Shown here piece after piece: positions 3,097 through 56,900 of a stretch of DNA of 64,000 nucleotides (positions within the stretch are counted from its first letter, which is position 1; each line of letters starts with the position of its first letter). The translations under genes and the position numbers were made by a program. The stretch comes from Candidatus Woesearchaeota archaeon. GTDB taxonomy: Archaea > Nanobdellota > Nanobdellia > Woesearchaeales > GW2011-AR9. Under the pieces are notes generated by a model. The model worked only from the letters and a program-made list of their open reading frames with translations, was not told where the DNA came from and did no database searches. The stretch is taken from contig JACOZP010000007.1 of NCBI GenBank assembly GCA_016181265.1, positions 6,560-70,559 of the forward strand. Direction: 5' to 3'.

Positions 3097-3999
3097 ATGA
3101 TACCATCACCTACCTCTTTATTCCAAGAAGCGCTTACTTTTGGCAAAGATCTTTCTCATGTCCTAAAAGAGGCAATAGCGCTGGGGATACAGCATCCAGT
3201 CAAAACCGCAATCATCGCTCAAGGCATTTGGCGTTGCCAAGATTCCTATTTTTCCGTACAACATGAACGCAATGAAAGCCCCTATTTTGTCTACGATGAA
3301 CACGACCGACGAATCCCGTTCCGGCCGCAAGAAAGCAGAACATACAATGATCTTCTCCCCCTTCTTTTGACCGTCCTTAAAACCGGAATCAAAGAACATT
3401 CTCGAAACGAAGTCCAACAGCTCGCAGATTGCTTTCTCACCGCAAACCAAATGGCGCAAGAAGTCTACAGAACATCTCAAACAATCATGCCACGCTTCAC
3501 TGTCCATCAGCAATGGGGACTTCATCTAGTTCAGTGGGTTGACTCACCCGTAAATTGTTGCCCAAGTTTACACGTTGCATTCTCTTCATTAATGTATAAT
3601 CTTCGTGAAGAGTTTATTCCCGCAGCACAACAGTCTGAGGCAGAACACTCACTCGAACGGATGGCCTCTGCCGTCTTATATACAAAACAACATGCTTTGA
3701 TTGATGTTGCCTTTGGTTTCCTTTGTGCAAGGATAGCGTTTGAACGACATTATGGGGCATTTACTGATGACCTTGCCGAACGAGCAGCGTCCCTCCAAAA
3801 AGAACATCCCTCAATTCCTTACCAAACAATCCTCGATCTCTACGAACAGAGCAGACAACGCTACCTAAGAGGTAGAACTCTTGCCGAGATTGTCAGCGAA
3901 CATCTCATAGAAAAGCAATACCCAAAAGTCTCGCGGGAAGAAGATCTTCGAGGGATTTATTTTGACACGCAAGAGAGAATCGTCAAAGAAAAAGAGTGA
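3097..3999 (+). CDS. hypothetical protein with PAP2_3-like motifs
   Basis: 300-aa ORF. CCPSLHVAFS and KQHALIDVAFG resemble the PSLH / HxxxD motifs of the PAP2_3 (AUR1-like) branch. No clear TM segments are visible. Confidence 0.45.
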   Translation: MIPSPTSLFQEALTFGKDLSHVLKEAIALGIQHPVKTAIIAQGIWRCQDSYFSVQHERNESPYFVYDEHDRRIPFRPQESRTYNDLLPLLLTVLKTGIKEHSRNEVQQLADCFLTANQMAQEVYRTSQTIMPRFTVHQQWGLHLVQWVDSPVNCCPSLHVAFSSLMYNLREEFIPAAQQSEAEHSLERMASAVLYTKQHALIDVAFGFLCARIAFERHYGAFTDDLAERAASLQKEHPSIPYQTILDLYEQSRQRYLRGRTLAEIVSEHLIEKQYPKVSREEDLRGIYFDTQERIVKEKE

Positions 4000-7783: not shown

Positions 7784-9205
7784 ATGAAACAGAAACAACC
7801 ATCGAAAACAAAAGGAATCGAAGAATCAAGACTTCTTCAGCACTGTCTCCAATATCAAAAGATCTATCTTCTTCTCCTCTTCTTCCTCCTCAGCGGAATG
7901 ATTATTTCCCATAACATAAGTGAAAATAAGCCCCTGTTCACGGGAGCCGAGAGTTATTATCATCTAACTTCTTCCCAAGCAGTCAGTTGGAAAACAGCCT
8001 ACTATTATCCTCTACATGTCCTAGAAGAAGCAGTTGGAAGCAATCTACTAATCATTTTTTCTCTCTGTCTAACAATAACGACACTTTTGATTATCTGGCA
8101 CGTTTTCAAAAAAATAGAACTATCACTTTTATTCACCGGTCTCTTCTCTCTCTTTCTGATTCTTACGCCGGCGTTCATGAAAAGTGCCACGACATTGTCA
8201 TCAGCAATGGTATTTCTGTTCCTCTTCAGCCTTTCCTTCTTCTTTTTCTTCCAGAAAAAGCCAGGCCTACGCTATTGTTCTATCATTACAAGCATCCTGC
8301 TCGCCTGCCTTGATCAATGGAGCGCTCTCTTCGCTTTCTTCATCTTTCTATTATACGCATTAAAGAATGAAAAGACAGAGCGTCGTGTGATCTGGGGAAG
8401 TATCATCGCACTCCTCACCTCATTACTATTTACCTCGCTAGTATCCAAAATTCCGTTTATCCTCGGCCCGTTCCATGCTTCTCAATTAGCACGGGATCTA
8501 ATCTCCGATTTTGGAGGATTTAGCGGGATGAGTTTTTTCATCGCCGCTCTCGCGCTGATTGGATTCATCATCTCCTGGCCAAAAAGAACAGCATACGCCT
8601 TACCTTACCTATCACTCCCTCTCCTTATCCCGGCCTATGTCTATAACACAGAAACAATCCTTCCTCTAAGTATCGTCTTTATCTTTTTCGCAACAGAAGC
8701 CGTGATCAATCTCATTAAACGACAATGGCAGCTTCCTACACTTCAGCAATTCACCCTCTTTCTTCTTCTCTTAGGCATAATCTTTTCCTCTTTAACATTT
8801 ATCTCCCGCTTAGAAACCGCTAGCCCGACCCACAATGATCTCCAAGTCCTTCAGTGGATGAAAGACGACTTAACCTCGTCCATCGTCGTCGCAACCTTTC
8901 CTGAAGATGCAGCTTATGTGCACTATCTCGCAGAAAAAGATACGTTCTTTGCCAGCTACGATCAAGATGCAGAAAGGGAGAAAGAAAATACCGCTATCAT
9001 CAGCGCGACATATATCCACCAGCTCTTTCCTCTCCTAGAGAAAAATAAGATAGAATATATCTATCTTTCAGAAGCTGCCACCAGACGTCTTCCTCCCGAT
9101 CAAGGACTTCCTTTCCTCTTCCAAAACGAAAGGTTTAAATTACTCTACTCAGCCGGAGGAAGCGCTATCTGGAAATTCGGTCCTCAGCCGGAGGGGATAG
9201 AATAA
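7784..9205 (+). CDS. GT-C fold membrane protein, second STT3/AglB-like paralog with degenerate motif
   Basis: The track ORF starts at TTG 7757. The ATG at 7784 lies 2 nt after the upstream stop. The protein is multi-TM with a C-terminal domain, and WMKDDLTSSIVVATFPEDAAY occupies the WWDYG-equivalent position. Confidence 0.5.
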   Translation: MKQKQPSKTKGIEESRLLQHCLQYQKIYLLLLFFLLSGMIISHNISENKPLFTGAESYYHLTSSQAVSWKTAYYYPLHVLEEAVGSNLLIIFSLCLTITTLLIIWHVFKKIELSLLFTGLFSLFLILTPAFMKSATTLSSAMVFLFLFSLSFFFFFQKKPGLRYCSIITSILLACLDQWSALFAFFIFLLYALKNEKTERRVIWGSIIALLTSLLFTSLVSKIPFILGPFHASQLARDLISDFGGFSGMSFFIAALALIGFIISWPKRTAYALPYLSLPLLIPAYVYNTETILPLSIVFIFFATEAVINLIKRQWQLPTLQQFTLFLLLLGIIFSSLTFISRLETASPTHNDLQVLQWMKDDLTSSIVVATFPEDAAYVHYLAEKDTFFASYDQDAEREKENTAIISATYIHQLFPLLEKNKIEYIYLSEAATRRLPPDQGLPFLFQNERFKLLYSAGGSAIWKFGPQPEGIE

Positions 9206-9237: not shown

Positions 9238-10512
9238 ATGAATCTTTTTGTCTCAATCATCTTGTGGATCAGCTACATTCTCTCTTTATATTTCTCCATC
9301 TTCCTTCTCCTCGTCTATTTTGATCAGAAGAAACTGTTCCGCAAAGAAAAAACGGAGACTAATCTCATCTCGTATCCGTTCGTCTCCATTCTCGTCCCCG
9401 CCTACAACGAAGAGAAAACAATTGAAAAAACGTTAAGATCAATTGATCAATTAGAATACCCAAAAGAGAAGATAGAAGTCATCATCATTAACGATGGATC
9501 AAAGGATCACACTGAAGAAGTAATCCAAAATGTTATCAGAGGAAAGCCCGAATATAATCTTCTTTCACATCAAAACCGAGGGAAAGCAGCATCATTAAAC
9601 AGAGCGTTGGCTCTCGCTAAAGGAGAATTTTTTGCTTGTCTTGATGCCGATTCTTTCGTCCACCCACTTACCTTGCGCAAGATGGTCGCTTTGTACCAGA
9701 AAGAGAACGATCCTTCCGTCGCCATCATCACACCGGCGATGAAAGTAGCCGATCCAAAGACGATCCTCCAGAAGATTCAATGGCTGGAATACTTAGTAAT
9801 GATTCTTTTCAGCCGGCTCACCAGTACTCTTCATTCATTGTATGTCGCACCCGGACCATTCTCTATCTATCGGACGGAAATCATCCGCTCCCTCGGAGGA
9901 TTCGATGAGAAAAATATCACTGAAGATCAAGAGATAGCGTACCGCGTCCAGTTAAGACAATATAAGATCAAACAATGCTTTGATGGTTATGTCTACACGA
10001 CCGCGCCAGCTAAGTTAAGACCATTCTATCGCCAGCGACGCCGCTGGTATCTCGGCAGCGTTATCTGTCTCCACCAATATCGCGAGATGATTGCCAACAA
10101 GAGATATGGAGATTTCGGACTGATGCAGATGGTAAAAAATACGTTAGGTTACTTTTTAGCCGTCGCCGGAATTACTATTTCTCTTTATTACATCTTTCTC
10201 CCTCTAATGCGAGTGTTCGGACGGATGAGTGCGATCAATTTTGACCTTATCAATTATGCTGTCTCTTTCAAATCGAATGTCAATATTTTTACATTCCTCT
10301 TGATGGATTTCAAGCTACTATTTCTTGTCCTGCTTCTCTTCATCATAGGATTCATCTTCTTCTATGCAGCTCACAAAAATGCTGAAGAAAGAATCAGTAA
10401 GTTCGGATGGCTCCCCATCATCCCTTATTTCGCGGGGTACTATCTTCTCAAAGGGACGATCCTTTTGATTTCATTAGGTCAATTCTCAAGAGGGAAGAAG
10501 ATGAAATGGTAG
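9238..10512 (+). CDS. processive family-2 glycosyltransferase (NodC/PgaC/HAS-like polysaccharide synthase)
   Basis: 424 aa with N- and C-terminal TM helices flanking a GT2 domain. Motifs seen: VPAYNEE, INDGSKD, LDADS, ITEDQE and QRRRW (the D,D,D,QxxRW set). Confidence 0.75.
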   Translation: MNLFVSIILWISYILSLYFSIFLLLVYFDQKKLFRKEKTETNLISYPFVSILVPAYNEEKTIEKTLRSIDQLEYPKEKIEVIIINDGSKDHTEEVIQNVIRGKPEYNLLSHQNRGKAASLNRALALAKGEFFACLDADSFVHPLTLRKMVALYQKENDPSVAIITPAMKVADPKTILQKIQWLEYLVMILFSRLTSTLHSLYVAPGPFSIYRTEIIRSLGGFDEKNITEDQEIAYRVQLRQYKIKQCFDGYVYTTAPAKLRPFYRQRRRWYLGSVICLHQYREMIANKRYGDFGLMQMVKNTLGYFLAVAGITISLYYIFLPLMRVFGRMSAINFDLINYAVSFKSNVNIFTFLLMDFKLLFLVLLLFIIGFIFFYAAHKNAEERISKFGWLPIIPYFAGYYLLKGTILLISLGQFSRGKKMKW

Positions 10513-16210: not shown

Positions 16211-16257
16211 TTCTCAACGTAAAGAAAGAAGTCCTATTAAAACTTTTGGATACTTAA

Positions 16258-16571
16258 GGCACTGTAGAAAAAGTCGCTGCTTGGACCAAGAGGTTGCACT
16301 GAGAAAAGCAGAATGCCCTGATCTTTAGATCATGTATGAATGCTATCGCTATCATTTCTGCTTTTCTTGTGTCACAGAAATTCGTCTATCAAGAAAGCGT
16401 CTCAGTTCAAGCCCTACTATTTATGAGGGGTGAGACGCTTTCGGCGAATTTCTCATGACGTGAGAACTGGTATATCCCGAAGTTATTGGTGCTGCTTAAC
16501 TGTAGAAGTTGTAGCAAAAGCAGCACGAACGCAACGGCCGAAGCGACTTTTTCGAGATTTTCTACAGAGCC
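16258..16571 (+). repeat. structured intergenic repeat, long copy (candidate sRNA or MITE)
   Basis: It shares its 5' block, core and 3' block with 28472-28617 and 56736-56886. The termini are reverse-complementary, and it carries an extra segment of about 160 nt at 16298-16459. Confidence 0.8.
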
Positions 16572-16671
16572 GGTACTTAACTAAGAATAAAACAATGGTC
16601 CTTCTCTCTCCAGACCATAAAAAGACCACCCATCCACAAACTATTTAAAACGAACTTCTCCTAAAAAAATC

Positions 16672-28425: not shown

Positions 28426-28471
28426 CAAAAGACTTGACCATCGAAGATTATAAAAATCTTTCCACTGATCT

Positions 28472-28617
28472 GCCCTATAAGAAAAGCCAGCCACCAGACT
28501 AAAAATTTGCGTGAGAACAACAACATATCCTAGTCGCTGGTGCTTCTTAGATTTAATCCAAGTAGCTGGAGAAGCACGAACACAACGGTCAGGTGATTTT
28601 TCGCTATTTTCTACAGA
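28472..28617 (+). repeat. structured intergenic repeat, short copy
   Basis: It aligns end to end with 56736-56886 and with the outer parts of 16258-16571. Confidence 0.75.
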
Positions 28618-28725
28618 TCAAGATTCTCGAAATAAGATTCTGCTTAAGAGAGACACTAACCAAGATTTCATAACATTTATATAACAACAAAAACAAAAAA
28701 CTCAGAACATGGGAGGCTGCTGTAA

Positions 28726-53311: not shown

Positions 53312-56089
53312 CTAATTCACCTTAAAGAAATACTCCGGCAGATATTCATTGCCACCTAAATATCTCTTCTTCATTTCTGGATCGACCGTAAATCCTTTGG
53401 GATAATTGATCTCCCACATCTTGATCGGACCAATCAATCTATTTTGATATAGAGACAGCGGGATCCCACTTTTCCCAACGCCATAGATCTCTCTAAATGC
53501 GGAAGTATCATACGCTAGGTTTTGTTGATCAAAGACATAAAGATTTACCCATAATGCTTTCATCCCTTCCTCGGAGACAAATAATCCTGCACCAACGGCG
53601 CTCGCAATCTTTCCATCATTTGCCAGAACAGGAATGATTCGGAAACAACCTGCATATCCTTGCGTTTGATAACGGAACATCTTGCCGTTAAAATAAAGGC
53701 ACTGAAGCGGTACATCCGTCCTTTTTCCATCTTTTACAATCGCTATCGTTGGTTGACCAAAAGTGACTGATTCCGTCGTCTCGTTCTCCACAACTCGCCG
53801 AATCGGAACGAAAACCGCACCTACACCTGATTGACGAGCAGGAAAGACCTCCCCATTCCAAGTGAAATCATCATCAAACGCCTGGCTTCCTTGAAACATC
53901 AATACAGTTGAGTCTCGTGTCTCTTGCGTTCCTTTCTCGTTAAGGACAAAAGTATTAATCCAGCTATACCGATCATAATTCTCATCCGAACCGATACTGG
54001 AATACGCCGTATACTTACCAATATCATCAGAAACGATCAGCAAATTCGTCGCTCTGTGAACCGATAGAAACTGTAATGCCTCTTCCTGAGATTGCCCCGT
54101 CAAGACATAACGCCCCATCAGATAGTTCCAATACTTGACTTTATTTGCCCCATCTAAGACGCTCGCTCGCTCAAAGCCATTCTGTACCCAATATCCATAA
54201 TCCCACCAATGCGCGAAAACCGCATCTTTTGCAATATTCTCACGTACCCAAGCACCGGCCATCTGCCAGGGAGGATTGTAAGGTGGAGAGGTATATGTTG
54301 CTTGTTTAACGGAATCTTGATAGTTGTCCGGAATCAATCCGCGGAAAGGCGAGACTAGCGGACTCATCAAGACGAGAAGCAGCACGACTAAAAGTGCAAC
54401 TCGCCCAGACTTATGTTTCCAATTCCAGATCATCTTTGCTAATTCCACAACGGCATATGCCCCCAATAACGCAACGACCGGTGCGAACACGAATAAAAGC
54501 CTGATTGCGCCACGCGCAGCGACAACCATAAATAAGACCCAGATCAAGACAAACAAAAGATTACTATCCCAACTCTTCAGTTGCTCGTATGCTTCTCTAT
54601 CTTTGTAATACCCACGTAATACATAATAAACTGTAAGCACTGCTAAAGCTAAGAAACTACCAAAGTAAAGGATAATCGAAAGAGGGGTCGAGCCGTTCAA
54701 CACACCATCAGGAGAATAACGACTCCATAATAAAAAGAACAAGAAGAGTACGTACGCTAAGACCAATTTGACTTTATCTTTATTCTTTCTAACCATCGCA
54801 TAAAACGCAAGAATCGTCCCGATAAGGAACAGAAAATAGGCCGCAGGAACACCGACGAATTCTGGACCGAAATTAGAGAGAATATCCGTAAAATACGGTT
54901 GATGTTGCTCGGCAACAGTTAATTCCCAGCGGTCTTTTCCCATCGGATGCAGTAATAACGACTTCGCTTCCTCCAACTGCGATCCCAGATGCATAGGACC
55001 AATTGCGATAAGCAAACCAAGTAATCCTAGTGCGCCGGCCACGAGAATACTTACCGCTGCCGGAGGTATTTTCCCTTTGATTTTTGTCTCCAAGCCAAAA
55101 AGATGATATTGAAAGAGAACAAGATCAATAGCAAGTACTACGAGGATAAATAAAGGGATTGCAGTGGTAATGGATTTCACAAGCGAAGATAAAGGAAATA
55201 ACGGAACCCAAGAAACCATCACCAGAACCGCGATAACAAACCATAAGCCATACATGTAGACGTGGCGTCGTTCAATCTTCTGAAAGATGTATTCTAATAA
55301 GACAAATAAACCGAAGATCAACGCAAGAAACTTCCATGCCCCCCACGTCAATCCCGTCAGACCAGTCGCGACACCCGCAGCCGCTCCCCACCATAGCGTC
55401 CTCTTCAAATCTTTTGCTTGCCAAGCTGCGATAAACAGATACATTGAAAGGAACATAAACATCATACCCAATGCATCGTGATCTGAGCTCCCTCCCATCG
55501 TCCTCTGCAAAAATGCCGGAGAAATTGTTAGTAAGAAACTGCCCAATAATGCCACTTTTTCATTAAACAATCGACGAGCGAGAAGGAAAAAGAAAAAAAT
55601 TCCCAGCGCAAACGCAATAACAGGATACACCACATCGGCATACCCCAATGTAACTGTCGGCACTAAGAAATGCATGATTTTATAGAGAAAATAGATAACA
55701 TACGCCATAAATGCATAGTTCGCTGTCGGCGCTCCGATCGGAACAAAACGCGTGGTATCAACAGCTGGAACGGACCCATCCGTCATTATCATCTTGGCAT
55801 ACTTAAAGTAAATATGTGAATCTAAGTCGACAGAAAGCCATTCCTGGTTGGTTACATCGTGAAGCAAACTGAAGTTAAGCGTGCGGATATAGCCCCCTAA
55901 CAAGATTATAGCAATCAATACTACATAAACCCAAAGATTCTTATTCTCTTTGAGATACGTGATCACTTTCTTTCGCTTCTGCGAAAGAGCATCACCAGCA
56001 TCATCGGAAGTTGAAAAGAAAGATTTGACTTTCTTTGTTAATTCTGTTCGTTTTTGTTGTAGATTATCTTGTGAATCGTTGTCTGTCAT
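53312..56089 (-). CDS. aglB: archaeal oligosaccharyltransferase AglB (STT3 family)
   Basis: 925 aa with 13 or more TM helices. The first loop is DLDSHIYFKY..D, and the canonical WWDYGYW motif (AHWWDYGYWVQ) is followed by a large C-terminal domain. Confidence 0.9.
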   Translation of the reverse strand: MTDNDSQDNLQQKRTELTKKVKSFFSTSDDAGDALSQKRKKVITYLKENKNLWVYVVLIAIILLGGYIRTLNFSLLHDVTNQEWLSVDLDSHIYFKYAKMIMTDGSVPAVDTTRFVPIGAPTANYAFMAYVIYFLYKIMHFLVPTVTLGYADVVYPVIAFALGIFFFFLLARRLFNEKVALLGSFLLTISPAFLQRTMGGSSDHDALGMMFMFLSMYLFIAAWQAKDLKRTLWWGAAAGVATGLTGLTWGAWKFLALIFGLFVLLEYIFQKIERRHVYMYGLWFVIAVLVMVSWVPLFPLSSLVKSITTAIPLFILVVLAIDLVLFQYHLFGLETKIKGKIPPAAVSILVAGALGLLGLLIAIGPMHLGSQLEEAKSLLLHPMGKDRWELTVAEQHQPYFTDILSNFGPEFVGVPAAYFLFLIGTILAFYAMVRKNKDKVKLVLAYVLFLFFLLWSRYSPDGVLNGSTPLSIILYFGSFLALAVLTVYYVLRGYYKDREAYEQLKSWDSNLLFVLIWVLFMVVAARGAIRLLFVFAPVVALLGAYAVVELAKMIWNWKHKSGRVALLVVLLLVLMSPLVSPFRGLIPDNYQDSVKQATYTSPPYNPPWQMAGAWVRENIAKDAVFAHWWDYGYWVQNGFERASVLDGANKVKYWNYLMGRYVLTGQSQEEALQFLSVHRATNLLIVSDDIGKYTAYSSIGSDENYDRYSWINTFVLNEKGTQETRDSTVLMFQGSQAFDDDFTWNGEVFPARQSGVGAVFVPIRRVVENETTESVTFGQPTIAIVKDGKRTDVPLQCLYFNGKMFRYQTQGYAGCFRIIPVLANDGKIASAVGAGLFVSEEGMKALWVNLYVFDQQNLAYDTSAFREIYGVGKSGIPLSLYQNRLIGPIKMWEINYPKGFTVDPEMKKRYLGGNEYLPEYFFKVN

Positions 56090-56710: not shown

Positions 56711-56728
56711 ATTATTTAAAGATTATGG
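56711..56728. promoter_or_regulatory. TATA-like box between aglB-operon start and repeat copy 3 (possibly bidirectional)
   Basis: Coding-strand CCATAATCTTTAAATAAT lies about 28 nt upstream of the ATG at 56690. The repeat begins about 18 nt on the other side. Confidence 0.45.
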
Positions 56729-56735
56729 AGAAAAA

Positions 56736-56886
56736 GGCTCTGTGAGAAAAAGTCAGCCGCCTGACCAAAAAGTTGCGTGAGAACAGCAATATCCCCCGTT
56801 ATTGGTGCTTCTTAGTTCTAGTCTGGGCGACTGGAGAAGCACGAACGCAATGGTTAGGTTGACTTTTTCAAAATTTTCTACAGAGC
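56736..56886 (+). repeat. structured intergenic repeat, short copy
   Basis: The sequence runs GGCTCTGTGAGAAAAAGTCAGCC ... GGTTGACTTTTTCAAAATTTTCTACAGAGC. The termini are reverse-complementary and there is an internal GTGCTTCT/AGAAGCAC hairpin. Confidence 0.8.
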
Positions 56887-56900
56887 AGAAGAAAAACTAG

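Follow-up and report, generated by a model that had tools for sequence, protein, structure and literature searches.

Origin and extent of the repeated element

The stretch of DNA considered here, 64,000 nucleotides from a Candidatus Woesearchaeota archaeon (contig JACOZP010000007.1, positions 6,560 to 70,559; hereafter the window), is about 41% G+C and encodes an MBF1-like helix-turn-helix protein, an STT3/AglB-type oligosaccharyltransferase and many glycosyltransferases. Dispersed among its genes are three copies of an intergenic element, all in the same (+) orientation, for which the original prediction favored a new family of small RNA (sRNA) genes, divergently transcribed from promoters shared with neighboring genes, and offered as an alternative a MITE (miniature inverted-repeat transposable element) with a preference for insertion near promoters. 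We interpret the copies as the remains of a small MITE that encodes nothing and was mobilized by an IS903-like transposase, and conclude that the family to which they belong is integrated precisely just upstream of the archaeal core promoter, that is, of the transcription factor B (TFB) recognition element (BRE) and the TATA box, in ~80-90% of more than 60 independent insertions. The explanation as a whole, of a MITE family mobilized by an IS903-type element and landing at the upstream edge of archaeal core promoters, is in our judgement very probable.

The limits first assigned to copy 1 (16258-16571) were retained, and those of copies 2 and 3 were refined to 28471-28620 and 56736-56887. No fourth copy was detected in the 64 kb by nhmmer profile, covariance model, core-pattern or terminal-repeat searches. 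All three share the predicted 5', core and 3' blocks (GGCWCTGTRGAAAAAGTC, CGTGAGAAC, TGGTGCTKCTT..AGCACGAACRCAAYGG and GAYTTTTTC-N4-ATTTTCTACAGAGC), the 5' block being, as had been noted, the reverse complement of the 3' block, and MAFFT aligns the copies over their full length except for a block of ~160 nt that is confined to copy 1. The core pattern AGCACGAACRCAAYGG has three zero-mismatch matches in the window, where about one chance match is expected with three mismatches allowed; four weaker matches (including those at 3260, 22598 and 60588) fall within coding sequence and were discarded as chance. Identity between pairs of window copies is 65-76%, and identity to the consensus of the copies found in a related Woesearchaeota metagenome-assembled genome (MAG) is 75-83%, the upper value being that of copy 1 after removal of its insert. 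This star-like pattern is that of old, decaying insertions.

Terminal repeats, target-site duplications and relatives

The element is bounded by terminal inverted repeats of 14-18 bp (GGCTCTGTAGAAAAAGTC), its ends reading GGCTCTGTAGAAAAAGTC ... ATTTTCTACAGAGCC, and the repeats GGCTCTGTAGAAAA / TTTTCTACAGAGCC are found in all three window copies as well as in relatives. Direct repeats of 9 bp, one on each side, flank copies 1 and 3; at copy 2, where several end positions have been lost, no such duplication is recognizable. The 152-bp element has no open reading frame (ORF) and encodes nothing. A scan for CGTGAGAAC-N45-75-ACGAACRCAAYGG in one genome per species returned 16 matches, of which 9 lie on nine contigs of the Woesearchaeota MAG JACQNE01; the others, singletons in unrelated and mostly bacterial genomes, are probably chance occurrences of the pattern. 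Most copies in JACQNE01 are flanked by a 9-bp direct repeat that is different at each site, perfect in one instance (locus L007, GCGTGAAAA on both sides; L numbers denote the loci examined for comparison) and matching at 8/9 positions in others (L010, L014), and the copy number in the fetched parts of this MAG is at least 10. The left-end 18-mer occurs at no fewer than 120 metagenome loci; the matches listed are for the most part MITEs 99-258 bp long, whose interiors are of many unrelated kinds and whose 9-bp duplications are very often perfect. In total, the duplication is perfect or has a single mismatch at 66 unique sites, and dozens of the relatives have perfect ones. A scan of viral contigs for the terminal repeat gave no match.

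Terminal repeats, a duplication of fixed length, multiple copies and the lack of coding capacity together define a MITE. The search for further copies and for target-site duplications, originally suggested as a means of distinguishing between the two proposals, thus produced many relatives and the 9-bp duplications. A palindromic element derived from IS200/IS605 (PATE), also considered for the main element, is ruled out by its terminal repeats and 9-bp duplications, elements of that class having subterminal hairpins and neither of these features. The family is diverse. Dozens of its subfamilies, of 99-258 bp, combine unrelated interiors with the same terminal repeat and BRE-adjacent site, among them elements of 142 bp (L036, L040, L049, L054, L084, L088, L129), and some are fully end-symmetric, unlike the subfamily in the window.

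An autonomous IS903-like partner

Elements of 894-986 bp with the same two ends, each containing one ORF of 266-304 amino acids, represent the autonomous insertion sequence (IS) partner of these MITEs (L044, L072, L091, L094, L133, L026, L125, L140, L143). The 18-mer that forms the left end of copy 1 also terminates these IS copies. Perfect 9-bp duplications flank those at L044 (CGTAAAATA) and L072 (AAACACGGC); at some others, such as L140 and L143, the duplication is not recognizable. Beyond 14 bp the two ends are asymmetric, as seen in the right end of the archaeal IS (L091: ..ATTTTTCGGAGATTTTCTACAGAGCC), and this explains the 9-nt "bulge" in the closing stem of the MITE.

The encoded proteins carry the domain DDE_Tnp_1 (PF01609; E 5e-10 and 3e-21). 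Their best match among the NCBI sub-models of the IS5 family is NF033579 (127 and 160 bits, cut-off 140), the model with which the IS903 transposase itself, from a Klebsiella plasmid, scores 353 bits. One archaeal transposase can be aligned over its full length to that of IS903 (19% identity, E 2e-8), the archaeal and IS903 proteins being 19-24% identical, and the inverted repeat of IS903, GGCTTTGTTGAATAAATC, read from the Klebsiella plasmid (L019), agrees with the MITE repeat in 14 of its 18 positions. A 9-bp duplication and ends that start with GGC, features of the IS903 group as known from ISfinder, are both present here. IS903 makes 9-bp duplications (Table 1 of PMC2577343). The partner is therefore an IS903-type member of the IS5 family, differing in host and in target choice. 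Public metagenomes contain over 600 relatives of its transposase, either unnamed or called "transposase", one of them bearing the label "MAG: transposase [archaeon]".

Two types of IS can be distinguished, one of 986 bp (L026, L125) and one of 894-908 bp (L044, L072, L091, L094, L133), which have the same 18-bp left end. Their transposases are only ~25% identical, indicating that a single set of ends is common to no fewer than two divergent lineages of transposase; both presumably serve the same pool of MITEs. By analogy with the known chemistry of IS903 and the IS5 family, movement would be by cut-and-paste: an IS of ~900 bp would supply its DDE transposase in trans to the MITE, the enzyme would cut the target with a 9-bp stagger, and repair of the gaps would leave the 9-bp target-site duplication.

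Insertion against BRE/TATA promoters

The rule of position was derived from 66 unique insertions (no more than one mismatch in the duplication) of all MITE subfamilies, taken from the window, the MAG and metagenome loci. An insertion was scored as adjacent to a TATA box when, on either side or both, an 8-mer matching TTTAWAWA at seven or more positions started 3-9 nt past the duplicated 9-mer. This is the case for 52 of the 66 (79%), with an offset of exactly 6 nt in 31 and of 5-7 nt in 45. Of random positions 6.5% pass this test, as do 12.4% of the possible intergenic 9-bp targets in the same contigs once the elements are removed, and the enrichment over the latter corresponds to a binomial p of 9e-35. 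Among the 14 exceptions, most have a near-miss, weaker TATA box with an unchanged offset. The rule extends to full-length IS copies, some conforming on the left side (L044, L133, L140) and others on the right (L091, L143).

A logo of 47 reconstructed empty sites, oriented by the TATA box, shows a C at target position 9 (51%), A at positions 10-13 (87% at position 13), two free positions and then TTTAWAAA; the opposite flank is devoid of any signal. A C followed by an A-run, a spacer and TTTAWAAA is the arrangement of an archaeal BRE and TATA box, not the palindromic WTTYA-N9-TRAAW of IS903. Further, a long ORF directed away from the element most often has its start codon 30-31 nt from the first T of the box, the geometry of leaderless archaeal genes, which places the 9-bp target at about -39 to -47 relative to the gene start.

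The three window copies fit this rule exactly, each with a 6-nt spacer between target and TATA box (Table 1). The box at 16242-16235 stands 32 nt before the ATG (16210) of the mbf1-like gene, the product of which carries an HTH_3 domain; for copy 2 the target is placed at the 9 bp of 28462-28470. The interval of 45-47 nt first reported between element and minus-strand ATG was reproduced for all three copies. The distance from TATA box to element, given earlier as 17-20 nt, is in fact 15 nt, comprising the 6-nt spacer and the 9-nt duplicated target. The suggested MITE with a promoter-proximal preference is thus strongly supported, and its positioning is more precise than had been supposed.

Two further aspects of these sites may be recorded. 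At five of them (L081:4322-4483, L107:4272-4371, L050:1748-1913, L049:7718-7870 and L100:2299-2460) the target has a TATA box at the canonical offset to its left and another to its right, indicating insertion exactly between back-to-back divergent promoters. Orientation is only moderately biased: of 28 asymmetric copies, 20 have the GAAAAAGTC end toward the promoter and 8 the opposite end (p 0.036).

Table 1. Coordinates of the MITE copies, their ends, target-site duplications and adjoining promoters in the window, and of the nested repeat and its relatives
Feature	Position	Strand	Remarks
MITE copy 1	16258..16571	+	314 bp: 152-bp element interrupted by nested 162-nt repeat
MITE copy 2	28471..28620	+	Degenerate, ends mutated; covariance model 89.9 bits; 75% identity to family consensus
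MITE copy 3	56736..56887	+	152 bp, best preserved; covariance model 149 bits
Left terminal inverted repeat, copy 1 (GGCACTGTAGAAAAAGTC)	16258..16275	+	1 mismatch to family consensus
Right terminal inverted repeat, copy 1 (GGCTCTGTAGAAAATCTC on minus strand)	16554..16571	-	Matches IS right ends, e.g. L091 ..TTTTTCGGAGATTTTCTACAGAGCC
Left 9-bp target-site duplication, copy 1 (GATACTTAA)	16249..16257	.	8/9 match to 16572-16580
Right 9-bp target-site duplication, copy 1 (GGTACTTAA)	16572..16580	.	Read from sequence
Left 9-bp target-site duplication, copy 3 (GGAGAAAAA)	56727..56735	.	8/9 match to 56888-56896
Right 9-bp target-site duplication, copy 3 (GAAGAAAAA)	56888..56896	.	Read from sequence
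Promoter of mbf1-like gene	16235..16248	-	BRE-like CAAAAG 16248-16243, TATA TTTTAATA 16242-16235; 6 nt past target
Promoter of PterinBD-DUF4346 gene (ATG 28425)	28448..28461	-	AAAGAT spacer, then TTTTATAA; 6 nt past inferred target
Promoter of 192-aa gene (ATG 56690)	56713..56726	-	ATAATC spacer, then TTTAAATA; 6 nt past duplicated target
Nested two-hairpin repeat	16297..16458	+	162 nt in copy 1, between GGTTG and CGTGAGAAC; boundary ambiguous by 1 nt
3' hairpin module sites	L071:2926-3014; L095:4584-4672, 8971-9059; L064:1601-1689; L058:6262-6348		
3' hairpin module sites, continued	L023:9665-9744; L079:5515-5593, 10412-10490		

Targeting, selection or direct reading of the promoter

An element whose 9-bp target abuts the upstream edge of a core promoter leaves that promoter intact, and occupies a harmless site in a very compact genome. 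The same outcome could in principle arise if the MITE inserted at random and purifying selection in a gene-dense genome left only the promoter-adjacent copies. The genomes of DPANN archaea are indeed compact, the far side of the element meets a gene directly (gaps of 0-13 nt) at about a quarter of the sites, and MITEs in general are mostly intergenic (PMC11602168). However, the offsets form a spike rather than a plateau, 31 of the 66 being exactly 6 nt and 45 being 5-7 nt, and a spike at one offset is not what selection acting on random insertions is expected to leave. The rule is satisfied by 12.4% of possible intergenic targets as against 79% of those used, the far side has a median of 65 nt, and often hundreds, free of any ORF of 100 codons or more, and copy 3 adjoins its promoter despite having ~300 nt of non-coding DNA to its right. 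We regard an origin of the pattern by selection alone as very unlikely.

If insertion is directed, the transposase itself may read the BRE/TATA sequence as its target motif, with no participation of a host transcription factor; this is the main alternative to a landmark formed by host factors. It has a precedent in IS903, which has a preference for sequences flanking its duplication, WTTYA-N9-TRAAW (Table 1 of PMC2577343), and the A-run at positions 10-13 of our sites resembles the TRAAW half-site. Yet the signal lies on one flank only and runs on for 14 nt past the duplication, whereas a symmetric complex of two ends should give a palindrome, as it does for IS903; the accepted boxes show the same degeneracy as TATA boxes in nature; and the weak orientation bias (20:8) fits an external landmark better than reading by one end of the element. 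Direct reading is accordingly best held as possible, short of probable.

The other candidate is the transcription pre-initiation complex. The transposition complex may be positioned not by a symmetric target sequence but by promoter DNA that is bound, and sharply bent, by TATA-binding protein (TBP) and TFB, with either these proteins on BRE-TATA or the bend that they impose determining where the cut is made. A one-sided signal reaching 14 nt past the duplication, the degeneracy of the TATA boxes and insertion in either orientation all point to a landmark that lies outside a symmetric complex. We put forward the pre-initiation complex as that landmark only tentatively.

The internal fold and its interpretation

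Copies 3 and 1 fold considerably better than dinucleotide shuffles (z -6.1 and -5.9), and copy 2 no better than they do (z -1.4). When folded singly, the sequences agree in forming a three-way junction whose 3' hairpin (P3) varies in sequence, and in the helix next to the terminal stem (P2) the pairs are kept among 31 members by GUUGCG/CGCAAC, GUAACC/GGUUAC, GAGGUC/GACCUC, ACAAAAC/GUUUUGU and others. Since RNAalifold applied to MAFFT alignments recovered the outer helices only, their center being misaligned, a hand-specified model was used; in the alignment of 53 copies fitted to it 90.5% of cells are paired and double changes occur in 46 of 48 pairs, counts that are inflated by the fitting itself. 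The covariation is nonetheless real, with a score of 0.433 as against 0.137 in shuffles (0/500 reach 0.433) and 0.05-0.09 in slid controls.

Structure of this kind is not peculiar to the window subfamily. The interiors of 35 subfamilies, examined with their terminal repeats removed, have a median z of -3.9 and fall below -3 in 24 cases, many of them being unrelated in sequence, which argues that self-complementarity is a property of whatever this transposase mobilizes. The conserved three-way fold would then be the self-complementarity typical of MITEs, rather than the signature of a dedicated sRNA, and on the simplest reading it may serve to bring the two ends of the element together. The change in the inner hairpin that had been taken for a compensated mutation is a real difference, but not one that arose by compensation in place: both variants, GCTTCT/AGAAGC and GCTGCT/AGCAGC, exist among the MAG copies (L004, L011 and L016 versus the rest) and are inherited as subfamily variants.

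The proposal that the copies are genes for small structured RNAs can be weighed against these observations; on this view one bidirectional TATA box serves both the minus-strand gene and a plus-strand RNA that ends at T-runs. The proposal is in keeping with the stable, covarying fold and with the position of the promoter, from which a start ~24 nt from the edge of the TATA box would fall at about position 8-10 of the element. The T5 and T4 runs at the 3' end are present as described, and are no more than the complement of the A-runs in the terminal repeat. Such an RNA would also be new, in agreement with the earlier impression that it resembles no known family: Rfam 15 yields no match at gathering score in the window or in 10 related loci, and at a permissive threshold copies 1 and 3 give noise alone (E >=0.56). 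Against it, terminal repeats, 9-bp duplications and an autonomous IS with the same ends account for the copies with no recourse to an RNA. The TATA box belongs to the host gene and lies outside the duplicated target, and its BRE-like A-run is found on the element side only, with no mirror-image T-rich BRE (T 0.15-0.36 at positions 24-29), contrary to the idea of a bidirectional box firing into the element. In addition, 8 of 28 asymmetric copies are oppositely oriented to the promoter, the window copies are only 65-76% identical and one of them (copy 2) no longer folds, and unrelated cores between the same ends are equally structured. Wobble pairs give no significant indication of a transcribed strand, G-U exceeding A-C among symmetrically defined pairs by 26 to 14 cells (p 0.08) or 16 to 11 distinct events. 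A new family of divergently transcribed sRNA is, on balance, most improbable.

Several other candidates were tried and set aside. A strand bias in pairs taken from RNAalifold (19 versus 4) was not upheld with symmetrically defined pairs. A kink-turn or C/D-like motif at GUGAGAAC / CACGAA lacks the 3-nt bulge, and its G-A pairs are Watson-Crick in sister subfamilies; in L022 and L034 plain Watson-Crick pairs take the place of the window subfamily's UGAG/CGAA junction, and the junction is hence part of a 10-bp helix. Resemblances to a hammerhead-like CUGANGA/GAAA core, 5S RNA and signal recognition particle RNA fail at key positions and have no Rfam match. The window contains no tRNA or tmRNA genes.

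A weaker form of the RNA proposal is that a MITE transcript has been recruited as a structured RNA or as a cis-regulatory module, such as a two-way terminator or insulator or a protein-binding RNA. P2 and P3 maintain pairing through 3-4 pair types per position, more than the ends bound by a transposase would need, and both strands leave the element through a T5 run, oligo-T being the termination signal of archaea. Even so, the wobble pairs show no strand bias, the window copies are decaying, and structure is general to every MITE subfamily with these ends, those with unrelated cores included. Recruitment is in our view unlikely.

Taken together, the findings are most easily reconciled with a MITE family mobilized by an IS903-type transposase and directed to promoters. 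Certain points tell against this interpretation. The transposase of the L044 type scores 127 bits, below the NF033579 cut-off of 140. Similarity between MITE and IS is confined to the terminal 17-19 bp, the core being unlike the IS interior, and this extent of sharing rules out a MITE core formed by simple deletion within the IS. No transposase gene was found by tblastn, with the IS903 and both archaeal transposases as queries, in the 64-kb window or the fetched JACQNE01 loci, and no empty (unoccupied) allele among ~145 loci examined. The insertion sites were gathered through an exact match to the left end, with a bias to young, intact copies, and the taxonomy of the metagenome contigs is deduced from archaeal genes on some of them only. 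To these may be added the inflated pairing noted above. Finally, tethering by TBP/TFB is read from sequence patterns, by which targeting and post-insertion selection cannot be fully separated.

A nested repeat and the genomic setting

The insert in copy 1 is a two-hairpin repeat (Table 1) that is unrelated to the MITE, and its relatives are scattered in intergenic DNA of related contigs. No target duplication is present at its edges. A free-standing copy, 84% identical, occurs at L040:2095-2252. The repeat folds with a z of -5.9, and its 3' hairpin module, GUCACA..GAAAGCGUCUC..UGAGACGCUUUC..AUGAC, is repeated nine or more times elsewhere in the examined loci, with compensated changes in the stem. 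It has no match in Rfam. A possible IS200/IS605 origin was considered for this insert, with its two hairpins and no duplication; no TnpA or TnpB was seen beside its relatives, the adjoining ORFs being ordinary housekeeping genes. The repeat may be a further non-autonomous mobile element, or else a genuine small RNA. Inserts of other kinds are seen in other MITE copies: that at L023:13506-13715 carries a 58-nt hairpin with CACACAA..TTGTGTG ends, and that at L025:403-590 an insert of ~36 nt with a GUCAC-GAACGAA-GUGAC mini-hairpin, which is present in L112 too. The interiors of these MITEs thus seem to grow by acquiring hairpin modules.

Within the window, genes for glycosyltransferases, sugar epimerase/aminotransferase, asparagine-synthase-like and STT3/AglB-type proteins extend over ~16670-44000 and 53312-56089, a run that is probably a surface-glycan or N-glycosylation island, and each of the three MITE copies lies at a promoter within this run or next to it. 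All 4-kb bins have a negative GC skew, and the cumulative value declines steadily over positions 1-64000, indicating no switch of the type seen at a replication origin or terminus. A Logan contig from the same sample (SRR12113430_669225; L017) starts ~140 nt upstream of the neighboring glycosyltransferase gene, at window position ~16533. Its start is inside the right arm of copy 1, as is usual in assemblies when a repeat has further copies in the same genome.

Significance and comparison with known systems

As a candidate sRNA, the element is explained away as an ordinary transposon relic, and it carries a caution: structured, covarying intergenic repeats should be tested for terminal repeats and duplications before they are called RNA genes. 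As a mobile element it may be more instructive. Were the interpretation given here correct, the family would exemplify "safe-haven" targeting as it occurs naturally in archaeal genomes of very small size, and would provide a direct handle on whether a DDE transposase can be steered by TBP and TFB, the archaeal relatives of the factors that steer Ty3. Each insertion would also flag a promoter, providing a sequence-only marker of functional promoters in uncultivated DPANN archaea, and the system could be a starting point for tools of promoter-directed insertion in archaea.

MITEs have been recognized in archaea before, as in the SM elements of Sulfolobus and the MITEs of haloarchaea. An automated census has enumerated 18,091 archaeal MITEs, with a Woesearchaeal genome among those of highest density, at 105 per Mb (PMC11602168). 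The present family resembles the catalogued archaeal elements in being intergenic and a non-autonomous derivative of an IS. Neither that census nor a 2026 survey of archaeal IS (PMC13343696) describes this family, its IS partner or its rule of position, and neither mentions a preference for promoter, TATA box or target site; a full-text literature search of limited extent gave no report of integration adjacent to BRE/TATA. Within the bounds of that search, the element would be of a known kind, and what appears to be new is its habit of precise integration upstream of promoters.

With IS903 the system shares a DDE_Tnp_1/NF033579 transposase, the 9-bp duplication, GGC ends, an inverted repeat identical at 14/18 positions and a single ORF that fills the element. 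It differs from IS903 in its DPANN archaeal hosts, in elements of ~900 bp, in proteins of only 19-24% identity and in a one-sided BRE/TATA target in place of the palindromic WTTYA-N9-TRAAW (PMC2577343). In having a core unrelated to the IS interior, the MITE is also unlike derivatives of the IS903 group.

Among bacterial MITEs, the Correia/NEMIS elements of Neisseria, ERIC and RUP are likewise structured, intergenic and located near gene starts. They resemble the present family in being small, non-coding and multi-copy, with terminal inverted repeats and long stem-loops; they differ in belonging to other transposase families with other lengths of duplication (TA for Correia), and Correia elements bring promoters of their own and an IHF site. 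To our knowledge, none of these inserts at a fixed distance from a core promoter.

The nearest functional analogy would be with retroelements that integrate next to promoters bound by TFIIIB. Yeast Ty3 is inserted at the transcription start by way of TFIIIB, and TRE5-A of Dictyostelium ~48 bp upstream of tRNA genes, the tethering of both having been proven experimentally. Common to these and to the family described here are a fixed distance from a promoter bound by proteins of the TBP/TFIIB family, a "safe haven" for the element and a promoter that still works. Ty3 and TRE5-A differ in their use of an integrase or of target-primed reverse transcription, whereas the archaeal element is a DDE DNA transposon with tethering suggested by the pattern of its insertion sites. 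If TBP and TFB do form the landmark, these insertions would constitute a prokaryotic counterpart of the targeting of Ty3 and TRE5-A through TFIIIB.

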